This document shows positions 1-35,076 of a stretch of DNA of 51,169 bases, piece by piece. Source of the stretch: a virus (taxonomy: Duplodnaviria; Heunggongvirae; Uroviricota; Caudoviricetes); IMG/VR virus record IMGVR_UViG_2526164628_000012; one strand, 5' to 3'. The position numbers were made by a program, and so were the translations under genes. The notes under the pieces are model-generated. The model searched no databases. It saw nothing but the letters and a program-made list of their open reading frames with translations, and was not told the origin of the DNA. The stretch's first letter is position 1, and each line of letters starts with the position of its first letter.

Positions 1-1131
1 TCAAATGACCAGTTTTTTCCATTCCTTACCGCGTGCGTCGTTGTAAATATCGGTCATTTTTTGATTCGAATGGCCTAGCAAAATTTTGGTATCAACCCCC
101 TGCTCTCTGAACAATCGCTCTGATAAAGATCTCTGCTCATGGAAAGAGGGTGGGGTGCCATTAGCACGCCAGTTGTAATCCACAGAATCCCGGGCTTTTT
201 TAAATGCAACGGTTAATGTTGCTGGCTTAACCATCCCGCCGCGCTTAGCTGTCCCTTTCGCGTGATGGTGGTGCAATAGCCACGGACTAAGAACGCAATC
301 GCGGCAGGATGACACTACATCATCCAGGGTGAGATTTAATTTATCGCAACGCAGAGCCAGAGGGATGGCAATCCGGGTTCCTGTTTTTTGCTGTTCGACA
401 TGAAGATAACCATCCCGGATATCCGAAAATTGCATTTTGCAAATATCTGAAAGGCGCTGGCCTGTCATCAGTGCCAGCAGCATACCGCGCTGTAAAAAGT
501 AACCATCCTTTTCCGCTGCGTTATAAATCATCATCCACTCATCAAAAGTCAGTCGCTGTCTTGATATCCGCACCTGCGGTTTTTTTGCCGATTCTGCAGG
601 GTTAAAGCCTGGCGGGACATCGCCCGTTTGCTGAGCTTCCCGGAAAACATCGATCAGTACCTTCCTGAAAATTTGTCCCATTCTGTTATGTCCTCTGGCC
701 TTGTACTCTTCCAGTACTGATACCACATCTTTTACGGTTATGGCATCTAACGGTCTGGTGCCAAAACGTTCATCAAATACCCTGAGAGGGGCCGCTTTCT
801 GTTTCAGCGTGTTGAGTTTGATCTCGCCGTTTTCATATCTTTCCTGTTGAATTTTTCTGTAATTATTCAGAAAAATGGTAACGGTTGATGAACCGCCGGT
901 ATCACTAATAATTTTCTCCTGCAGACTGAGCATTTGTTCCATTTGCTGCCGGGCAAGACGGCTGTTCGCTTCTGCTGCAATAGTTTCTGCCAGTTTCTGG
1001 TCAATACTGCCGAGACCGTGATTTTTGCCTGTTATGGGATGCCTGTAACGCCAGTAAACTTTGTTATTTCTTTTGTCAAAATACGGAGATAATCCCGGAA
1101 CATTGGTTTTATATTTTCGCGGGCGCGCCAT
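1..1131 (-). CDS. int: Phage integrase (tyrosine recombinase), 376 aa
   Basis: Full ORF with stop at 1-3; lambdoid-integrase-like N-terminus (MARPRKYKT...); sits at prophage end with xis overlapping its 5' end. Confidence 0.85.
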   Translation of the reverse strand: MARPRKYKTNVPGLSPYFDKRNNKVYWRYRHPITGKNHGLGSIDQKLAETIAAEANSRLARQQMEQMLSLQEKIISDTGGSSTVTIFLNNYRKIQQERYENGEIKLNTLKQKAAPLRVFDERFGTRPLDAITVKDVVSVLEEYKARGHNRMGQIFRKVLIDVFREAQQTGDVPPGFNPAESAKKPQVRISRQRLTFDEWMMIYNAAEKDGYFLQRGMLLALMTGQRLSDICKMQFSDIRDGYLHVEQQKTGTRIAIPLALRCDKLNLTLDDVVSSCRDCVLSPWLLHHHHAKGTAKRGGMVKPATLTVAFKKARDSVDYNWRANGTPPSFHEQRSLSERLFREQGVDTKILLGHSNQKMTDIYNDARGKEWKKLVI

Positions 1132-5725: not shown

Positions 5726-5797
5726 GTTGACCTCATTTCCCCTTAACGCCGGGGTAGCGGAACAAAAGTAAGCGGCTCGTCAGAACCGTATTGATAT

Positions 5798-7369
5798 TTA
5801 CTGAGAGCTCAGATCAACTTTCCAGGGCAACAGATCGCGTACCCGGTTTGCCGGCCAGTCCTGGATATGTTCAATGACGTAGCGCAGCCACTTTTCTGGC
5901 TCCACATTGTTCAGACGGCATGTGCCGATCAGCGAGTACAACACCGCCGCATGTTCACCACCGCTGTCGGAACCCGCGAACATCCAGTTTTTCCGGCCTA
6001 CGGCCACTCCCCGTAAGGCGTTCTCTGCGATGTTGTTGTCGATTTCCACCCAGCCATTACTGCAGTACACGTTCAGTGCATCCCACTGTTTCAGCAGGTA
6101 TGCGAACGCTTTTGCCGTATCTGAGTGACGCGACAGTGTTTTCATCTGTTGCTGTATCCAGTCATACAGTGACTGCATCAGTGGCGCGGCTCTGGTTTTT
6201 CTTGCCGCCAGACGCTGTTCTGCTGAACAGCCCCGGACCTCTGCCTCGATGGCATACAGTTCACCGATACGCTGCAGGGCTTCCGTGGTGATGTCGGTGG
6301 GCGCTCTTGCATGCACATCGTGGATTTTTCTCCGGGCATGAGCCATACACGCGGCTTCCGTTATTCTGCCGGATTCGTATAACGCCCGGTAACCACCGTA
6401 AGCATCGGCCTGAAGCACACCGCTGTAACCGGCCAGGTGATTTTGTGGATGGATACCTTTCCGGTCCGGACTGTACGCGAACCAGACCGCCGGGGGCATC
6501 TGTGAACCGGCGTTACGGTCATCACGGACGTAGACCCACAGCCGGGCTGTCCGGGTTTTACCGCTGCCCGGCTCCTGGACCGGGACGGGGATATCATCAG
6601 CATGGACTTTACCGGGCATCAGCACATACTGGCGCAGGACGTCATACAGCGGCTCCAGTAGTTCAGCAACGGCACCTGTCCAGCGCCCCAGTGTGGCACG
6701 GCTCAGCTCCACACCCTGACGGCGGTATATCTCTGACTGGCGGTATAACGGCAGATGGTCTGCATATTTTCCGGTGACGACATGGGCCAGGAGCCCCGCT
6801 CCGGCATAACTGCGTGCAATGGGTTTTGAAGGTACTGGTGCCTGCACGATATGGTCGCACCGACAACAGGCCAGTTTCGGACGTTGTGTTTCGATAACCT
6901 TAAAGGCGCTGCTGATAAGCTCCAGTTGCTCTGACACATCACATCCCAGAGAACTGAGTTCACCACCACAGGCAGGACAGCATTCCTCTTCCGGCCGGAT
7001 AACCCGGGTTTCACGGGGAAGTGAGGCCGGTAACGGTTTACGGGCTGAAGACTGGCGCAGGGCGGATGGCAGTACCGGGTCATATTGCTCACCCAGCGTT
7101 TCCGCCATTTCTTCCTGAAGTGCGCTGATTCGCTCCTGTGCTTCCTGTATCTGCCGTTCGGTTTTTGCACGAAGTTTTTCTGAGCTTTTACCGAACTGCA
7201 TACGTTGCAGTTTCGCAACCAGCGCCTTCAGCCGGTTGATTTCGGAAGCATAAGCCGCCACCCGCTGTGAGAGCAGGCGGTTGTATTCAGCCATCTGGCG
7301 TATGGTGTCCTGTTGCGTCTGCAACAGTGCCCGCAGGCGGGCGTTCTCATGAGCAAGTGAGGTGTCCAT
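5798..7369 (-). CDS. IS66-family transposase (orf3/TnpC), 523 aa
   Basis: Characteristic IS66 transposase length and arrangement; identical protein in second copy. Confidence 0.85.
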
Positions 7370-7388
7370 ATCCTCACTTTACAACGGG

Positions 7389-7736
7389 TTATATGCGGAT
7401 TCCAGCGCGTTCCGTTCGTTTCGGGTGCTTCCAGTTGATACCTTCAAGAAGCATGGATAACTGAGCCGGAGTAAGGTGCACCTTGCCGTCACGGGTGACT
7501 GGCCAGACGAAGCGGCCCCGCTCCAGGCGTTTGGTGAAGAGGCACAGTCCGTCACTGTCAGCCCACAACACTTTTATCTGGTCACCCCGGCGTCCGCGGA
7601 AGATGAACAGGTGTCCGGAGAACGGGTCATCCTTCAGGACGTTCTGAACTTTTGATGCCAGGCCGTTAAAGCCATTTCGCATATCGGTGATACCTGCAAC
7701 CAGCCAGATACGCGAACCTGCAGGGAGAGATATCAT
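7389..7736 (-). CDS. IS66-family Orf2 (TnpB), 115 aa
   Basis: Middle ORF of IS66 three-gene arrangement. Confidence 0.8.
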   Translation of the reverse strand: MISLPAGSRIWLVAGITDMRNGFNGLASKVQNVLKDDPFSGHLFIFRGRRGDQIKVLWADSDGLCLFTKRLERGRFVWPVTRDGKVHLTPAQLSMLLEGINWKHPKRTERAGIRI

Positions 7737-8413
7737 CAGTGGCTGCTCCCTTTTATTTCGCGGATAAGTGTCTGTAATAACGCCGGCGTCAGTTTACCTT
7801 TAAGCCTGAGAGTTCCGGCCGGCAGAACCAGCTCACAACACAGACTGTCGGACGGTGTATTTATCTGCTCTGGTTCCTGTGCGGGGGCCGGGATTTTATT
7901 ATCCGGCTCCGGCGTTAACGTCACGGGAAGCAGTGCCGGCATATTTTTTCCGGAAGGCAGCAGGCCACCTTTCCGGTATTGATGGCGCCAGTTGAAGAGC
8001 AGGTTATCGTTGATTCCGTTTTCCCGGGCGATCTGCGCCACACAGGCTCCGGGCTGCAGTGACTGCTCCACTAAGGCGATTTTAAACTCATAAGGGAAGT
8101 TGGGCCGCCGGGGACGTTTTTTTACCACGGGGGCTTCGGATATAACGGTGCTTTCAGGACGTACGACTGGTACCGTGGAAAATTGTCCGTAAAGGCAGGC
8201 ATCAAGTTCCTGCTCCGACATGCCTGCGGGCAAAGGCCACGAAAGGCCAGCTCTCCGAAAGCGCACGAACATACTACAAACTGTTGATTTTGGTACACCC
8301 AGGCGACGCCCGGCCACAACCCGGGGTAAATGTTCTTCAAAGTGAAGACGTAAAGCTTCAGTGATCCAGGTCCGGTGTTTCATACGATAGTGTCCATTAA
8401 AAATGATGGACAT
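7736..8413 (-). CDS. IS66-family Orf1 (TnpA), 225 aa
   Basis: First ORF of IS66 arrangement; overlaps orf2 start. Confidence 0.8.
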   Translation of the reverse strand: MSIIFNGHYRMKHRTWITEALRLHFEEHLPRVVAGRRLGVPKSTVCSMFVRFRRAGLSWPLPAGMSEQELDACLYGQFSTVPVVRPESTVISEAPVVKKRPRRPNFPYEFKIALVEQSLQPGACVAQIARENGINDNLLFNWRHQYRKGGLLPSGKNMPALLPVTLTPEPDNKIPAPAQEPEQINTPSDSLCCELVLPAGTLRLKGKLTPALLQTLIREIKGSSH

Positions 8414-8618
8414 TATTTTTGTAGAGCCGGAGGAAACAGACCAGACGGTTTAAATGAGCCGGTTACGAACAAAAACCTGCTGCATAGTTATTAAAGTTGA
8501 ACCCTGCCGTCATGTTCTTACGCCTCGGGCTGGCTACTTAACCCCTGACCACTGCCTGGTAACTCGAAGTATTGCCCTGCATTCTGTGGGGCGGGGGGGG
8601 TTGGTATGAAAAGAAGGA

Positions 8619-8655
8619 TACCCATAGGTATTTAAAAAGTAAATACCCATGGGTA
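8619..8655. promoter_or_regulatory. Two palindromic operator-like sites TACCCATAGGTA and TACCCATGGGTA
   Basis: Two 12-bp TACC-N4-GGTA palindromes about 25 bp apart, downstream of the repressor gene and upstream (before IS insertion) of ydfA-DicF-dicB. Confidence 0.4.
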
Positions 8656-8697: not shown

Positions 8698-9116
8698 CTA
8701 TGATGCGTTTTGTGCTTTCTTTTTACGGATTTCTTCGTAGATCATATTGTAATACTGTTTTTTCTCTTCAAGAGTTTTTAATAATTTATCCGCTTCACTT
8801 TCTGGCAGTTCGTCTAAGAGATCTAAAAAAATACGTTGTCGTGGCGTTAGAACCCTTGTTTCATAACTGGAGGCTGTGTTCGTTGATGATGAAACGATAC
8901 CATCCATCCATCCCCGGGGTAACCCAAAGGACTCTTCGATAATCTCCACCATATCATCAGCGATCCGTTTTTTCCCTTTTTCCCCTCTGGGTACAACATT
9001 CTTGATACATAAGAAGGCTCGCGCCCGATCTTTCTGGCCACGTTAACCGCTTTACCATCGCATTTCTCATCACGAATTTTGATGAGTTGCTGTCGTCTAA
9101 ATTCATATTTGTCCAT
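8698..9116 (-). pseudogene. DicA/CI-like HTH repressor, frameshifted
   Basis: Two overlapping ORFs (8847-9116 and 8698-8952) form one repressor-like protein if one base is added to the A6 run in GGGAAAAAAC (plus-strand T6 near 8967-8972); C-terminus resembles DicA. Confidence 0.55.
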
Positions 9117-9136: not shown

Positions 9137-9187
9137 TACCGCAAGGTAAACAACCTGTGGGTATTGACTTTTGTTTACCTGTGGGTA
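9137..9187. promoter_or_regulatory. Divergent promoter/operator region with three TACC-N4-GGTA-type sites
   Basis: TACCGCAAGGTA (9137-9148), AACCTGTGGGTA (9152-9163), TACCTGTGGGTA (9176-9187) between divergent repressor and cro-like genes. Confidence 0.45.
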
Positions 9188-9216: not shown

Positions 9217-9498
9217 ATGGAAGAATTAAGAATATTTCTCAATTCTCTTTCGTCAGATGAACAGCGTATGTTTGCATGCGAGTGTGGTACCAGCATCGGT
9301 TATCTAAGAAAGGCATTGAGTAAAGGTCAAGTGTTAGGGGCATCGTTATGTGTCCTTATTGAGCGAGCCAGTAATGGTGAAGTTACACGTCAGCAACTAA
9401 GGCCTTTTGATTGGATGAATATTTGGCCCGAGCTGGAAGATACCAAAACGTTAACACAACCACTTTCTAGGAGCTTGATTCATGAAAATCAAGCATGA
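9217..9498 (+). CDS. Cro/DicC/YdaS-like HTH regulator, 93 aa
   Basis: Divergent from repressor; motif pattern resembles DicC/YdaS family. Confidence 0.6.
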   Translation: MEELRIFLNSLSSDEQRMFACECGTSIGYLRKALSKGQVLGASLCVLIERASNGEVTRQQLRPFDWMNIWPELEDTKTLTQPLSRSLIHENQA

Positions 9499-9907
9499 AC
9501 ACATCCGCATGGCGATGAATGTCTGGGCGCATCCGGACGGCGAAAAAGTGCCGGCTGCGAAAATTACCAAAGCGTATTTCGAGCTGGGAATGACGTTCCC
9601 GGAACTGTATGACGACAGCCATCCGGAAGCCCTGGCCCGTAATACCCAGAAAATTTTCCGTTGGCTGGATAAAGACACCCCTGATGCTGTTGAAAAAATG
9701 CAGGCTCTGTTACCGGCGATCGAAAAGGCGATGCCGCCTTTGCTGGTGGCCCGTATGCGTAGCCACAGTTCTGAATATTACCGTGATATCGTCGAACGGA
9801 GGGATCGGCTGGTGAAGGATGTCGATGATTTTGTTGCGTCAGCGGTTGTTTTGTATGACCAGATGAATCGCGGCGGCCCGGCAGGGAATGCTGTGGTGAT
9901 GCACTAA
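9482..9907 (+). CDS. YdaT-like protein (CII-analogue position), 141 aa
   Basis: N-terminus MKIKHEHI and C-terminal VVMH resemble recalled Rac YdaT; follows the cro-like gene as in Rac. Confidence 0.55.
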   Translation: MKIKHEHIRMAMNVWAHPDGEKVPAAKITKAYFELGMTFPELYDDSHPEALARNTQKIFRWLDKDTPDAVEKMQALLPAIEKAMPPLLVARMRSHSSEYYRDIVERRDRLVKDVDDFVASAVVLYDQMNRGGPAGNAVVMH

Positions 9908-9914
9908 AAGCACG

Positions 9915-10892
9915 GTGTTCGGGGGTTTTATGAGCAGCAAGCTTCATGGTCTTGTCTGGGAAGGGTGCGCCTTCACCGGCATGATCTTATCCAGGGTGGC
10001 GGTTATGGCCCGTCTTGCAGACTACAGCAATGACGAGGGCGTGTCATGGCCTGCCATTGAAACTATCCGGCGTCAGATCGGTGCAAGAAGTGAATCCACA
10101 GTGAAATCGGCTATTGCAGAACTGGCGAAAGAGGGCTGGCTGACGAAGGAAGAGCGTAAGGTCGGTGGGCGTAATGTAAGCAATATCTATCGGCTTAATG
10201 TGGAAAAACTCGAAGCAGCTGCGGCGGCGGCGCGTGAGTCATATAAACCGAAAAGAAAAATTAGCCCGGCAAAAAATGACCCGTTAACAGTTGACCCGTC
10301 AAATATTGACCCCTCAACGGTTGACCCGTCAAATTTTGATGGATCAACTGTTGATAAAAAACTGCCGATTAGGGGGCCGATGATTGACCCCGATCCGTCA
10401 GTATTAAAACCTGATCCGTCAGATAAAAGATCTTCTTGTCCGGACGCTTCGCAACCGGACCCGCAGACGGCTGAACAGGATTTTTTAACCCGACACCCTG
10501 ACGCGGTTGTGTTCAGTGCGAAAAAACGCCAGTGGGGAAGTCAGGAAGATTTGGTGTGCGCACAGTGGATCTGGGGACGAATCGTGAGTCTTTACGAGCA
10601 GGCGGCCAGCTATGATGGCGAGATCACTAGACCGAAAGAACCCAACTGGACAGCATGGGCCAATGACGTTCGCACAATGCGGATGCTGGATGGCAGAACT
10701 CACAGACAAATTTGTGAAATGTTTGGGCGTCTCCAGCGGGATTCGTTCTGGGTAAAAAACATCATGAGTCCGGCAAAACTCCGGGAAAAATGGGATGAAC
10801 TGGTTATCCGCCTGGGGCGTTCGCCTGCGCAGCGTTGCGTGAATCACATTTCTGAACCGGACACTGAAATTCCGCCGGGCTTCAGGGGGTAA
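9915..10892 (+). CDS. Replication initiator (O-like) with embedded origin iterons
   Basis: Winged-helix-like N-terminus; internal 15-bp iterons encode VDPSN peptide repeats; probable true start ATG 9930. Confidence 0.6.
   Translation: MFGGFMSSKLHGLVWEGCAFTGMILSRVAVMARLADYSNDEGVSWPAIETIRRQIGARSESTVKSAIAELAKEGWLTKEERKVGGRNVSNIYRLNVEKLEAAAAAARESYKPKRKISPAKNDPLTVDPSNIDPSTVDPSNFDGSTVDKKLPIRGPMIDPDPSVLKPDPSDKRSSCPDASQPDPQTAEQDFLTRHPDAVVFSAKKRQWGSQEDLVCAQWIWGRIVSLYEQAASYDGEITRPKEPNWTAWANDVRTMRMLDGRTHRQICEMFGRLQRDSFWVKNIMSPAKLREKWDELVIRLGRSPAQRCVNHISEPDTEIPPGFRG
10277..10425 (+). repeat. Origin-like iterons: TGACCCNTNAAC repeated at 15-bp spacing plus additional GATCCGTCAG repeats
   Basis: Direct repeats at 10277, 10292, 10307, 10322 (and degenerate 10337), further repeats 10383-10421, inside the initiator gene as in lambda O/ori. 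Confidence 0.5.
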
Positions 10893-18131: not shown

Positions 18132-18458
18132 ATGACTAAAAATACTCGTTTTTCCCCCGAAGTCCGTCAGAGGGCGATTCGTATGGTTCTGGAAAGTCAG
18201 GGCGAATATGACTCACAGTGGGCGGCAATTTGTTCCATTGCCCCAAAGATTGACTGTACACCGGAGACTCTGCGTGTCTGGGTACGCCAGCATGAGCGGG
18301 ATACCGGAGGCGGTGATGGCGGGCTCACCACCGCTGAACGTCAGCGTCTGAAAGAGCTGGAACGTGAAAATCGTGAACTGCGCCGCAGTAACGATATCCT
18401 TCGCCAGGCTTCCGCTTATTTTGCGAAGGCGGAGTTCGACCGCCTCTGGAAAAAGTGA
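18132..18458 (+). CDS. IS3-family transposase OrfA, 108 aa
   Basis: HTH/leucine-zipper OrfA typical of IS3 family; recalled as IS629 OrfA. Confidence 0.8.
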
Positions 18459-19345
18459 TGCCACTGCTGGATAAGCTGCGTAAGCTGTACGGGGTCGGAC
18501 CGGTATGCAGTGAACTACATATTGCCCCGTCAACGTATTACCACTGTCAGCAACAGCGACATCATCCTGATAAACGCAGTGCCCGTGCGCAGCGCGATGA
18601 CTGGCTGAAGAAAGAGATACTGCGCGTATACGATGGGAATCATCAGGTATACGGTGTGCGTAAAGTCTGGCGTCAGTTGTTACGGGAAGGAATCAGGGTA
18701 GCCAGATGTACAGTGGCGCGCCTCATGGCGGTTATGGGACTTGCCGGTGTTCTCCGGGGTAAAAAGGTCCGCACTACCGTCAGCCGGAAAGCCGTTGCCG
18801 CAGGCGACCGCGTAAACCGTCAGTTTGTGGCAGAACGTCCTGACCAGTTGTGGGTGGCTGATTTTACTTACGTCAGCACATGGCAGGGGGTCGTCTATGT
18901 GGCGTTCATCATTGATGTGTTTGCCGGATACATCGTGGGGTGGCGGGTCTCATCGTCTATGGAAACGACATTCGTGCTGGATGCTCTGGAGCAGGCGTTA
19001 TGGGCCCGTCGACCGTCCGGCACAGTCCATCACAGTGATAAAGGTTCTCAGTATGTATCGCTGGCCTACACACAGCGGCTTAAGGAAGCCGGATTACTGG
19101 CATCAACAGGAAGTACTGGTGACTCGTATGACAACGCGATGGCGGAGAGCATCAATGGCCTTTACAAAGCGGAGGTAATACACCGTAAGAGCTGGAAAAA
19201 CCGGACAGAAGTGGAACTGGCCACACTCACGTGGGTGGACTGGTATAACAATCGACGATTGCTGGAAAGGCTGGGCCATATCCCACCGGCAGAAGCAGAA
19301 AAAGCTTATTATGCTTCCATCGGAAACGATGATCTGGCAGCCTGA
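18455..19345 (+). CDS. IS3-family transposase OrfB (DDE), 296 aa
   Basis: DDE integrase-like catalytic ORF overlapping orfA. Confidence 0.8.
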
Positions 19346-19903: not shown

Positions 19904-19979
19904 GGCCCTTTAGCTCAGTGGTGAGAGCGAGCGACTCATAATCGCCAGGTCGCTGGTTCAAATCCAGCAAGGGCCACCA
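19904..19979 (+). tRNA. tRNA with CAU anticodon (Ile2/Met-type, ileZ-like)
   Basis: Cloverleaf folded by hand: acceptor GGCCCTT/AAGGGCC, anticodon loop CTCATAA, CCA end. Confidence 0.8.
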
Positions 19980-19986
19980 TCACATA

Positions 19987-20063
19987 CCGCCATTAGCTCA
20001 TCAGGATAGAGCGCCAGCCTTCGAAGCTGGTTGCGCGGGGTTCGAGTCCTCGATGGCGGTCCA
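19987..20063 (+). tRNA. tRNA-Arg (anticodon UCG)
   Basis: Acceptor CCGCCAT/ATGGCGG, anticodon stem CCAGC/GCTGG with loop CTTCGAA, TTCGAGT T-loop, CCA end. Confidence 0.75.
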
Positions 20064-20076
20064 TTATCTGTACCCT

Positions 20077-20153
20077 GCGTTGTTAGCTCAGCCGGACAGA
20101 GCAATTGCCTTCTAAGCAATCGGTCACTGGTTCGAATCCAGTACAACGCGCCA
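20077..20153 (+). tRNA. tRNA-Arg (anticodon UCU)
   Basis: Acceptor GCGTTGT/ACAACGC, anticodon loop CTTCTAA, TTCGAAT T-loop, CCA end. Confidence 0.8.
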
Positions 20154-31970: not shown

Positions 31971-32162
31971 AACATACTGAATTCCGTGCAGCCGTACTGG
32001 ATGCACTGGAGAAGCATGACACCGGGGCGACGTTTTTTGATGGTCGCCCCGCTGTTTTTGATGAGGCGGATTTTCCGGCAGTTGCCGTTTATCTCACCGG
32101 CGCTGAATACACGGGCGAAGAGCTGGACAGCGGTAAGCGGCTCGTCAGAACCGTATTGATAT

Positions 32163-33734
32163 TTACTGAGAGCTCAGATCAACTTTCCAGGGCAACAGAT
32201 CGCGTACCCGGTTTGCCGGCCAGTCCTGGATATGTTCAATGACGTAGCGCAGCCACTTTTCTGGCTCCACATTGTTCAGACGGCATGTGCCGATCAGCGA
32301 GTACAACACCGCCGCATGTTCACCACCGCTGTCGGAACCCGCGAACATCCAGTTTTTCCGGCCTACGGCCACTCCCCGTAAGGCGTTCTCTGCGATGTTG
32401 TTGTCGATTTCCACCCAGCCATTACTGCAGTACACGTTCAGTGCATCCCACTGTTTCAGCAGGTATGCGAACGCTTTTGCCGTATCTGAGTGACGCGACA
32501 GTGTTTTCATCTGTTGCTGTATCCAGTCATACAGTGACTGCATCAGTGGCGCGGCTCGGGTTTTTCTTGCCGCCAGACGCTGTTCTGCTGAACAGCCCCG
32601 GACCTCTGCCTCGATGGCATACAGTTCACCGATACGCTGCAGGGCTTCCGTGGTGATGTCGGTGGGCGCTCTTGCATGCACATCGTGGATTTTTCTCCGG
32701 GCATGAGCCATACACGCGGCTTCCGTTATTCTGCCGGATTCGTATAACGCCCGGTAACCACCGTAAGCATCGGCCTGAAGCACACCGCTGTAACCGGCCA
32801 GGTGATTTTGTGGATGGATACCTTTCCGGTCCGGACTGTACGCGAACCAGACCGCCGGGGGCATCTGTGAACCGGCGTTACGGTCATCACGGACGTAGAC
32901 CCACAGCCGGGCTGTCCGGGTTTTACCGCTGCCCGGCTCCTGGACCGGGACGGGGATATCATCAGCATGGACTTTACCGGGCATCAGCACATACTGGCGC
33001 AGGACGTCATACAGCGGCTCCAGTAGTTCAGCAACGGCACCTGTCCAGCGCCCCAGTGTGGCACGGCTCAGCTCCACACCCTGACGGCGGTATATCTCTG
33101 ACTGGCGGTATAACGGCAGATGGTCTGCATATTTTCCGGTGACGACATGGGCCAGGAGCCCCGCTCCGGCATAACTGCGTGCAATGGGTTTTGAAGGTAC
33201 TGGTGCCTGCACGATATGGTCGCACCGACAACAGGCCAGTTTCGGACGTTGTGTTTCGATAACCTTAAAGGCGCTGCTGATAAGCTCCAGTTGCTCTGAC
33301 ACATCACATCCCAGAGAACTGAGTTCACCACCACAGGCAGGACAGCATTCCTCTTCCGGCCGGATAACCCGGGTTTCACGGGGAAGTGAGGCCGGTAACG
33401 GTTTACGGGCTGAAGACTGGCGCAGGGCGGATGGCAGTACCGGGTCATATTGCTCACCCAGCGTTTCCGCCATTTCTTCCTGAAGTGCGCTGATTCGCTC
33501 CTGTGCTTCCTGTATCTGCCGTTCGGTTTTTGCACGAAGTTTTTCTGAGCTTTTACCGAACTGCATACGTTGCAGTTTCGCAACCAGCGCCTTCAGCCGG
33601 TTGATTTCGGAAGCATAAGCCGCCACCCGCTGTGAGAGCAGGCGGTTGTATTCAGCCATCTGGCGTATGGTGTCCTGTTGCGTCTGCAACAGTGCCCGCA
33701 GGCGGGCGTTCTCATGAGCAAGTGAGGTGTCCAT
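32163..33734 (-). CDS. IS66-family transposase (orf3/TnpC), 523 aa
   Basis: Identical protein to copy 1. Confidence 0.85.
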
Positions 33735-33753
33735 ATCCTCACTTTACAACGGG

Positions 33754-34101
33754 TTATATGCGGATTCCAGCGCGTTCCGTTCGTTTCGGGTGCTTCCAGT
33801 TGATACCTTCAAGAAGCATGGATAACTGAGCCGGAGTAAGGTGCACCTTGCCGTCACGGGTGACTGGCCAGACGAAGCGGCCCCGCTCCAGGCGTTTGGT
33901 GAAGAGGCACAGTCCGTCACTGTCAGCCCACAACACTTTTATCTGGTCACCCCGGCGTCCGCGGAAGATGAACAGGTGTCCGGAGAACGGGTCATCCTTC
34001 AGGACGTTCTGAACTTTTGATGCCAGGCCGTTAAAGCCATTTCGCATATCGGTGATACCTGCAACCAGCCAGATACGCGAACCTGCAGGGAGAGATATCA
34101 T
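33754..34101 (-). CDS. IS66-family Orf2 (TnpB), 115 aa
   Basis: Identical to copy 1. Confidence 0.8.
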   Translation of the reverse strand: MISLPAGSRIWLVAGITDMRNGFNGLASKVQNVLKDDPFSGHLFIFRGRRGDQIKVLWADSDGLCLFTKRLERGRFVWPVTRDGKVHLTPAQLSMLLEGINWKHPKRTERAGIRI

Positions 34102-34778
34102 CAGTGGCTGCTCCCTTTTATTTCGCGGATAAGTGTCTGTAATAACGCCGGCGTCAGTTTACCTTTAAGCCTGAGAGTTCCGGCCGGCAGAACCAGCTCA
34201 CAACACAGACTGTCGGACGGTGTATTTATCTGCTCTGGTTCCTGTGCGGGGGCCGGGATTTTATTATCCGGCTCCGGCGTTAACGTCACGGGAAGCAGTG
34301 CCGGCATATTTTTTCCGGAAGGCAGCAGGCCACCTTTCCGGTATTGATGGCGCCAGTTGAAGAGCAGGTTATCGTTGATTCCGTTTTCCCGGGCGATCTG
34401 CGCCACACAGGCTCCGGGCTGCAGTGACTGCTCCACTAAGGCGATTTTAAACTCATAAGGGAAGTTGGGCCGCCGGGGACGTTTTTTTACCACGGGGGCT
34501 TCGGATATAACGGTGCTTTCAGGACGTACGACTGGTACCGTGGAAAATTGTCCGTAAAGGCAGGCATCAAGTTCCTGCTCCGACATGCCTGCGGGCAAAG
34601 GCCACGAAAGGCCAGCTCTCCGAAAGCGCACGAACATACTACAAACTGTTGATTTTGGTACACCCAGGCGACGCCCGGCCACAACCCGGGGTAAATGTTC
34701 TTCAAAGTGAAGACGTAAAGCTTCAGTGATCCAGGTCCGGTGTTTCATACGATAGTGTCCATTAAAAATGATGGACAT
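34101..34778 (-). CDS. IS66-family Orf1 (TnpA), 225 aa
   Basis: Identical to copy 1. Confidence 0.8.
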   Translation of the reverse strand: MSIIFNGHYRMKHRTWITEALRLHFEEHLPRVVAGRRLGVPKSTVCSMFVRFRRAGLSWPLPAGMSEQELDACLYGQFSTVPVVRPESTVISEAPVVKKRPRRPNFPYEFKIALVEQSLQPGACVAQIARENGINDNLLFNWRHQYRKGGLLPSGKNMPALLPVTLTPEPDNKIPAPAQEPEQINTPSDSLCCELVLPAGTLRLKGKLTPALLQTLIREIKGSSH

Positions 34779-35076
34779 TATTTTTGTAGAGCCGGAGGAA
34801 ACAGACCAGACGGTTTAAATGAGCCGGTTACGGACAGCGATACCTGGCAGGCGGAGCTGCATATCGAAGTTTTCCTGCCTGCTCAGGTGCCGGATTCAGA
34901 GCTGGATGCGTGGATGGAGTCCCGGATTTATCCGGTGATGAGCGATATCCCGGCACTGTCAGATTTGATCACCAGTATGGTGGCCAGCGGCTATGACTAC
35001 CGGCGCGACGATGATGCGGGCCTGTGGAGTTCAGCCGATCTGACTTATGTCATTACCTATGAAATGTGAGGACGCT

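Follow-up and report, generated by a model that had tools for sequence, protein, structure and literature searches.

In the lambdoid, Rac/Qin-like prophage analysed here, the gene that appears to encode the immunity-type repressor is split into two open reading frames (ORFs) by the lack of a single A in a homopolymer run, and this missing base is probably a sequencing or assembly undercall in the draft assembly. The window, by which is meant the whole stretch of 51,169 nucleotides that was analysed, comprises a whole lambdoid prophage located at ompW in an enterotoxigenic-lineage E. coli, its start coinciding exactly with the 3′ end of the integrase gene (window positions 1-1131). In the nearest relative, TW10590, ompW is found on one side of the prophage and an OmpW-family fragment on the other.

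The A run and the intact form of the repressor gene

Two overlapping ORFs were listed on the minus strand of the window, at 9116-8847 (89 aa) and 8952-8698 (84 aa), and the insertion of one A in the A6 run fused both into a single uninterrupted ORF of 139 aa. The first-pass annotation had claimed that the two ORFs would be contiguous only with one base added to this run, and this was borne out, the repaired protein being exactly WP_000362153.1. In other E. coli genomes, this protein is the product of an annotated CDS of 420 nt; it is found in many genomes of the species and is labeled 'hypothetical protein' or, elsewhere, 'phage repressor protein CI'. Its sequence was present on at least 1000 public contigs, and the 89-aa frameshift product on one; because the repaired product exactly matches a protein so widely represented, the split is not due to chance. 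In its natural form, the gene is one 139-aa ORF encoding an HTH domain (residues 1-74) and a DicA-like hairpin (residues 92-138), with a disordered linker between them. The locus comprised the following features:

8698..9116, minus strand: repressor gene, 139 aa if the run is A7, split here by a one-base shortfall (identity to WP_000362153.1; phrog_5736)
8847..9116, minus strand: upstream ORF, 89 aa, of which the first 49 are native (helices 1-3, with the HTH) and the other 40 are out of frame (ORF list and structure model)
8698..8952, minus strand: downstream ORF, 84 aa, starting at the internal Met56 and retaining the final helix of the N-domain together with the LPRGWMD motif, linker, and DicA-like helical tail
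8968..8973, minus strand: A6 run, A7 in nearly all other genomes, coding for the conserved Lys49-Lys50
8968..8985, minus strand: purine-only tract of 18 nt, G4-A5-G3-A6 (codons GGG AAA AAG GGA AAA AA-)

The A6 run corresponds to a plus-strand T6 at 8968-8973; such a T6 had been placed at about 8967-8972, so that the run stood and its coordinates were off by one base. The minus strand around it reads GGGAAAAAAC, with the junction codons CCA GAG GGG AAA AAG GGA AAA AAC GGA, and the missing A was the sole difference between the window and two other loci (L001 and L002) over 581 nt. The existence of the run follows from the conservation of Lys49-Lys50.

The frameshift, at codons 49/50, falls within the N-terminal domain (residues 1-74), which is conserved, and maps to the loop connecting the recognition helix of this domain with its final helix. 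It had been presented as the divider between an HTH part and a DicA-like part of the protein; both regions exist, but the DicA-like one starts only at about residue 89, and a frameshift at the domain boundary was rejected on the basis of the alignment and the structure model, which place it inside the N-domain. Twelve residues that are invariant in 20 short and long homologues (K50, R51, I52, A53, D54, M56, E61, F64, L66, G69, W70, and D72) lie past the frameshift. The 89-aa product lacks part of the DNA-binding domain and the entire tail, and therefore a real A6 allele should be null.

Domain composition and regulatory setting of the repressor

The protein is modular, joining a CI-type DNA-binding domain to a DicA-like tail that replaces the autocleavage domain. 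Residues 1-74 were 64-83% identical to the DNA-binding domains of CI/LexA-type repressors bearing PF00717 (S24 peptidase). A search of 5.8 billion protein sequences retrieved, from Salmonella, Serratia, and Yersinia, homologues encoded by a single ORF of 135-140 aa (54-85% identity), together with many LexA-family/S24 repressors of 220-242 aa, whose first ~75-100 residues were 64-83% identical. Therefore, the comparison with homologous repressors, E. coli included, yielded single ORFs of 135-140 aa in four genera, and the suggestion that the two ORFs might be naturally separate was rejected, since homologues down to 54% identity, in other genera too, were all single ORFs.

The longer relatives, such as the 221-242-aa 'LexA family protein' of Salmonella, Edwardsiella, Pantoea, and Klebsiella, share the N-domain, including the GKKGKKRIADDM segment with the A run, and carry an autocleavage domain, instead of which the repressor described here has a linker and a helical hairpin. 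In the alignment, its 50-residue helical tail stands where the S24 domain sits in these proteins. In the absence of an S24 domain, RecA-stimulated self-cleavage cannot be the induction route of this repressor. The same N-domain (residues 1-74) was thus observed joined to an S24 peptidase in Salmonella, Edwardsiella, Pantoea, Klebsiella, and Citrobacter (220-242 aa) and, as an alternative partner, to the DicA-like helical tail in E. coli, Salmonella, Serratia, and Yersinia (135-140 aa). Judging from these alignments, shared N-domains with different tails would imply equal operator specificity and different induction routes.

Profile searches assigned the protein to phrog_5736 ('transcriptional regulator'), with residues 1-139 matching positions 1-133 of the 133 in the profile (E 6.4e-70), and a Pfam search revealed no match at E ≤ 1, neither to the S24 peptidase PF00717 nor to HTH_3. 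Another PHROG of 59 positions, phrog_27486 ('unknown function'), matched residues 1-50 only (E 2.5e-36); this family was apparently built from truncated or frameshifted N-terminal fragments of the repressor gene, in which case errors in the tract have been propagated into a family database.

The AlphaFold (AF2) model (pLDDT 85.6) presented helices at residues 3-18, 23-30, 34-40, and 54-63, a disordered linker at 77-87, and the helical hairpin at 92-138. Its top Foldseek matches were HTH proteins of the Xre/Cro/CI type, namely the Rep of Salmonella phage SPC32H, controller C proteins, HigA, and the N-domain of TP901-1 CI, with weak E-values that were all above 1e-3. The best of them was SPC32H Rep (PDB 5d50/5d4z, Rep-Ant complex; E 1.9e-3, probability 1.00), which is likewise a short HTH repressor and whose structure was solved with its antirepressor; with an identity of 16-22%, an rmsd of about 10 Å, and a TM of 0.4-0.5, the likeness is at the level of fold and architecture only. 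No antirepressor was identified in the 51-kb window. No significant sequence homologue was found in the PDB, and a match to the Z-alpha domain of ADAR1 (E 0.08) was taken as chance.

Concerning gene position, the repressor resembles DicA of the Qin cryptic prophage of E. coli K-12 (b1570), which occupies the same place, divergent from a cro-like gene and upstream of ydfA(DUF1391)-ydfB-ydfC-dicB-ydfD. In fact, relatives of the window without the insertion sequence (IS) that separates these genes here present the order repressor - DUF1391/ydfA - ydfB - ydfC - dicB - ydfD, as for dicA in K-12 Qin. Both proteins have a similar size (135 aa for DicA and 139 aa here) and lack an S24 peptidase domain, and DicA residues 84-129 aligned with repressor residues 89-134 at 33% identity (E 2e-7), a likeness limited to a 46-residue tail. 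The N-terminal domain of DicA had no detectable sequence similarity to that of the repressor, and the operator sequences of the two are therefore expected to differ. The identification of the gene as a CI/DicA-like repressor, proposed from the sequence at the outset, was thus supported by the identity of its N-domain, the HTH-fold model, the DicA-like tail, and the DicA-type gene position. RacR of the Rac prophage (b1356) holds an equal regulatory position, divergent from ydaS-ydaT; a homology with RacR was considered and discarded (best BLASTP E 2.3).

The genes and candidate operators around the repressor gene were the following:

9217..9498, plus strand: divergent cro-like gene encoding a YdaS-like HTH protein (phrog_35; PF15943 match below the Pfam cutoff)
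9482..9907, plus strand: cII-like gene of the YdaT family (PF06254, 40.8 bits with a cutoff of 21; phrog_163 'CII-like transcriptional activator', E 5e-47)
9152-9163 and 9176-9187, no strand: operator-like pair in the divergent promoter region (pattern search)
8619-8630 and 8644-8655, no strand: operator-like pair close to the downstream end of the repressor gene, before the ydfA-like...dicB operon (pattern search)

The ydaS-like gene, annotated in relatives as 'transcriptional regulator' or 'YdaS family', lies 100 nt from the repressor gene on the opposite strand, and the cII-like gene is followed by an HTH_36 replication gene, which is intact at 9915-10892. The ydaS/ydaT-like genes are intact in the window as well, and the lysis genes are intact according to the TW10590 annotation.

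The TACCCAYRGGTA palindrome occurs at four sites in the 51-kb window, every one of them flanking the repressor gene; the search with the pattern TACCYAYRGGTA gave 7 strand matches at these 4 sites, with 0.34 expected by chance. Site 9176-9187 overlaps the -10 of a promoter-like site for the ydaS-like gene. These palindromes are putative operators of the repressor, which, bound to the four TACCCAYRGGTA sites, would shut off both the divergent ydaS/ydaT-like (cro/cII-like) early operon and the ydfA-like...dicB operon. The 12-bp palindromes are spaced 24-25 bp within each pair, and the pairs are ~520 bp apart across the repressor gene, a geometry that would allow repressor-mediated looping over its own gene.

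Run length across genomes and the recoding and phase-variation readings

The locus was carried by 822 of 5,426 complete E. coli genomes, which constituted the population sample. The exact A7 82-mer was found in 709 of the 822, the exact A6 81-mer in two (MLI104K2 and ETEC1703), and the A8 83-mer in none of these locus-bearing complete genomes; the remaining ~110 corresponded to SNP haplotypes, with an in-frame length in those sampled. Some genomes carry two copies of the locus, and an 88%-identical homologue has other nucleotides at the site and keeps the frame. Among the fetched loci, the A7→A6 change was observed in 10 (L007, L008, L012, L013, L016-L020, and L022), and other one-base deletions affected the neighbouring runs, as G4→G3 in L014 and A5→A4 in L021. 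All public frameshift alleles examined were one-base deletions within the 18-nt purine tract at 8968-8985. The 84-aa ORF entries were dropped as a proxy for frameshift frequency, having been found annotated at times on intact A7 genes (RM12761 and L015).

These counts bear on the reading that A6 is functional, whether by -1 ribosomal frameshifting or transcriptional slippage that gives the full-length repressor, or as one state of an A7/A6 phase-variable switch that derepresses the prophage stochastically, a reading that we consider very improbable. Its main attraction is a heptamer overlapping the run:

8967..8973, minus strand: A_AAA_AAC heptamer, in phase for a -1 slip (GG[A AAA AAC] in the zero frame, X_XXY_YYZ type)

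A P-site -1 slip at this heptamer would give the exact wild-type 139-aa protein, and a tandem slip would give K50N. The same heptamer is found, equally in phase and followed by an ORF in the -1 frame, at the insA-insB' frameshift site of IS1, where it is a proven motif of low efficiency in E. coli (PMC4066793); moreover, A6 recurs on several backgrounds. However, the two-ORF layout is conserved and required in IS1, whereas here it was found in about 0.2% of complete genomes and was absent from all homologues, the exact A7 prevailing in 709 of 822 genomes and single ORFs in four genera. No stimulatory RNA structure was revealed downstream of the heptamer: the 97 nt that follow fold at -27.4 kcal/mol, with a shuffle mean of -26.6 (z = -0.26), and the inverted repeat I10 (8880-8890 / 8953-8963) belongs to a fold that does not exceed the shuffles. 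Heptamers without a stimulator reach in E. coli just 2-10 times the background of ~0.055%, so that the frameshift yield here would be far below 1% (PMC4066793).

The proposed phase-variable switch was not supported either. Phase-variable homopolymer loci are usually polymorphic in length in both directions and have tracts of 8 nt or more. Here, the tract has just 7 nt, A7 (709 genomes), A6 (2 genomes), and A8 (none) are distributed in a single direction, and the A6 copies are singletons at the tips or belong to error-prone drafts, their recurrence tracking assemblies with error signatures. It would accordingly be most surprising if A6 were real and IS1-type slippage yielded a trickle of repressor that left a barely repressed, hair-trigger prophage, or if A7 and A6 switched recurrently across E. 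coli lineages.

Undercall or recent deletion in a decaying prophage

The first-pass annotation had also offered a genuine inactivating mutation and a homopolymer error; these two readings survive, and the evidence favours the error. The window was 100% identical over 6,255 bp to the draft contig AIHF01000013.1 (GCA_000250315.2). Two other drafts, L018 (AIEX01000028.1) and L022 (AIFD01000014.1), also carry A6, on a different, E2348/69-like haplotype, and their neighbouring accession prefixes suggest that they come from the same project as AIHF01. Each of these sisters presented a private T6→T5 deletion that neither the other sister nor E2348/69 (L024) carries, and in L022 this deletion splits the HTH_36 replication gene into ORFs of 42 and 253 aa; such private deletions are evidence of homopolymer undercalls in both drafts. 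Similarly, MLI104K2 (A6) has a T7→T5 change in the repressor gene and a frameshifted exonuclease adjoining it, L019 (A6) has 20 gap openings in 2.4 kb, and the near-identical L013 and L014 differ in which base of the purine tract is deleted (A7→A6 and G4→G3, respectively). The concentration of frameshift alleles in assemblies with independent homopolymer errors is what base-calling errors would be expected to produce. Moreover, loss-of-function mutations would scatter along the gene, and thus deletions confined to one 18-nt tract of four successive homopolymers favour base-calling errors and fit those of flow-based or nanopore methods. Among Logan contigs, a single one had the 89-aa product (ERR4562137); it was 98.4% identical to the window, with 4 gaps, and, as a different haplotype, was rejected as read-level support for the A6 of the window.

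The alternative reading, which we regard as possible though doubtful, is a very recent A7→A6 deletion by replication slippage, making the repressor a lineage-private pseudogene in a degenerating prophage, where the null would be tolerated because the prophage is crippled by ISs or because a homoimmune repressor elsewhere acts in trans. The state of the prophage is relevant to this reading:

5768..8466, minus strand: IS66-family element with an 8-bp target duplication (GAACAAAA), common to ETEC TW10590
7736-8413, 7389-7736, and 5798-7369, all minus strand: tnpA, tnpB, and transposase genes of this IS66
32133-34836: second copy of IS66, differing from the first by 2 mismatches and located in a phage minor-tail-U-family gene; the site is empty in TW10590
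18078-19387: IS3-family element of 1,310 bp with ends TGAACCGCCCCGGG (orfA 18132-18458, orfB 18455-19345), interrupting the prophage DNA-methyltransferase gene

The decay of the prophage is visible in these insertions, two of IS66 and one of an IS3-family element. Inserted 42 nt upstream of the DUF1391/ydfA-like ORF, the first IS66 parts the ydfA-like...dicB operon from the downstream operator pair, and dicB has probably lost its link to the native promoter under repressor control. The second, placed in the minor-tail-U-family gene, makes the prophage of the window probably defective for tail assembly. The IS3-family element is absent from TW10590, which has instead an IS21/ISEc62 in the HTH_36 replication gene. 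The prophage also carries a tRNA cluster at 19904-20153, composed of tRNA-Met(CAT), tRNA-Arg(TCG), and tRNA-Arg(TCT); the first is annotated as tRNA-Ile in TW10590 and is probably tRNA-Ile2 with a modified CAT anticodon.

A genuine deletion would be in keeping with these three insertions, one of them parting the operators from the dicB operon, and with the presence of two copies of the locus in some genomes. Homopolymer indels are, besides, a frequent class of spontaneous mutation. The comparison with TW10590 points in the same direction: over ~47 kb aligned, the two sequences differ by 9 substitutions, three ISs, and one indel, which is the A run, and all 7-base runs (15) and 8-base runs (2) of the window agree with TW10590, so that this contig has few errors (1 indel per 47 kb) and the assembly is generally accurate. 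Furthermore, the complete genome ETEC1703 (A6) shows an equally clean single-base difference, with one gap in 4 kb, from its three clonal sisters.

On the other hand, TW10590 shares the first IS66 and its target duplication with the window and has A7 and an intact CDS; therefore, A6 is either younger than the shared insertion or an artefact, and if real it is private to the assembly of the window. A6 was found at tips only, and no lasting A6 clade exists outside one set of error-prone drafts. The deletions at the shorter G4 and A5 runs in other assemblies are hard to explain as mutations, and a genuine A6 would leave a product devoid of the 12 invariant residues of the DNA-binding domain, while the early operon to be repressed and, per the TW10590 annotation, the lysis genes remain intact. 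The analogous racR is essential in K-12, where its loss is lethal, because it represses ydaS-ydaT (PMC5700377, PMC5700373; context in PMC5917428). By this analogy, a true null in a prophage with intact ydaS/ydaT-like, replication, and lysis genes would probably be deleterious, which favours an artefact or a compensating factor outside the window. The IS66 that probably already uncouples dicB would, for its part, make a real null less costly.

Taken together, these observations lead us to infer an artefact, rather than a mutation, behind the missing base. According to this interpretation, an undercall in the draft AIHF01000013.1 would have dropped one A of the A7 that codes for Lys49-Lys50, giving the gene its two-ORF appearance, and the real gene would be intact.

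The repressor gene is widespread and already catalogued, and its split is an ordinary one-base homopolymer discrepancy, whose biological weight is small and whose practical value lies in curation. The 18-nt purine tract GGGGAAAAAGGGAAAAAAA is a recurrent one-base undercall site in public E. coli assemblies, and undercalls at GGGGAAAAAGGGAAAAAAA give rise to false 'phage repressor protein' entries of 84 aa and, apparently, to a PHROG of N-terminal fragments too. Consequently, split calls at this locus should not be taken as pseudogenisation, immunity loss, or recoding without read-level support. If, instead, the deletion were real, the strain would offer a natural experiment on whether a Rac/Qin-type prophage can persist in the absence of the repressor when its ydaS/ydaT-like genes are intact.
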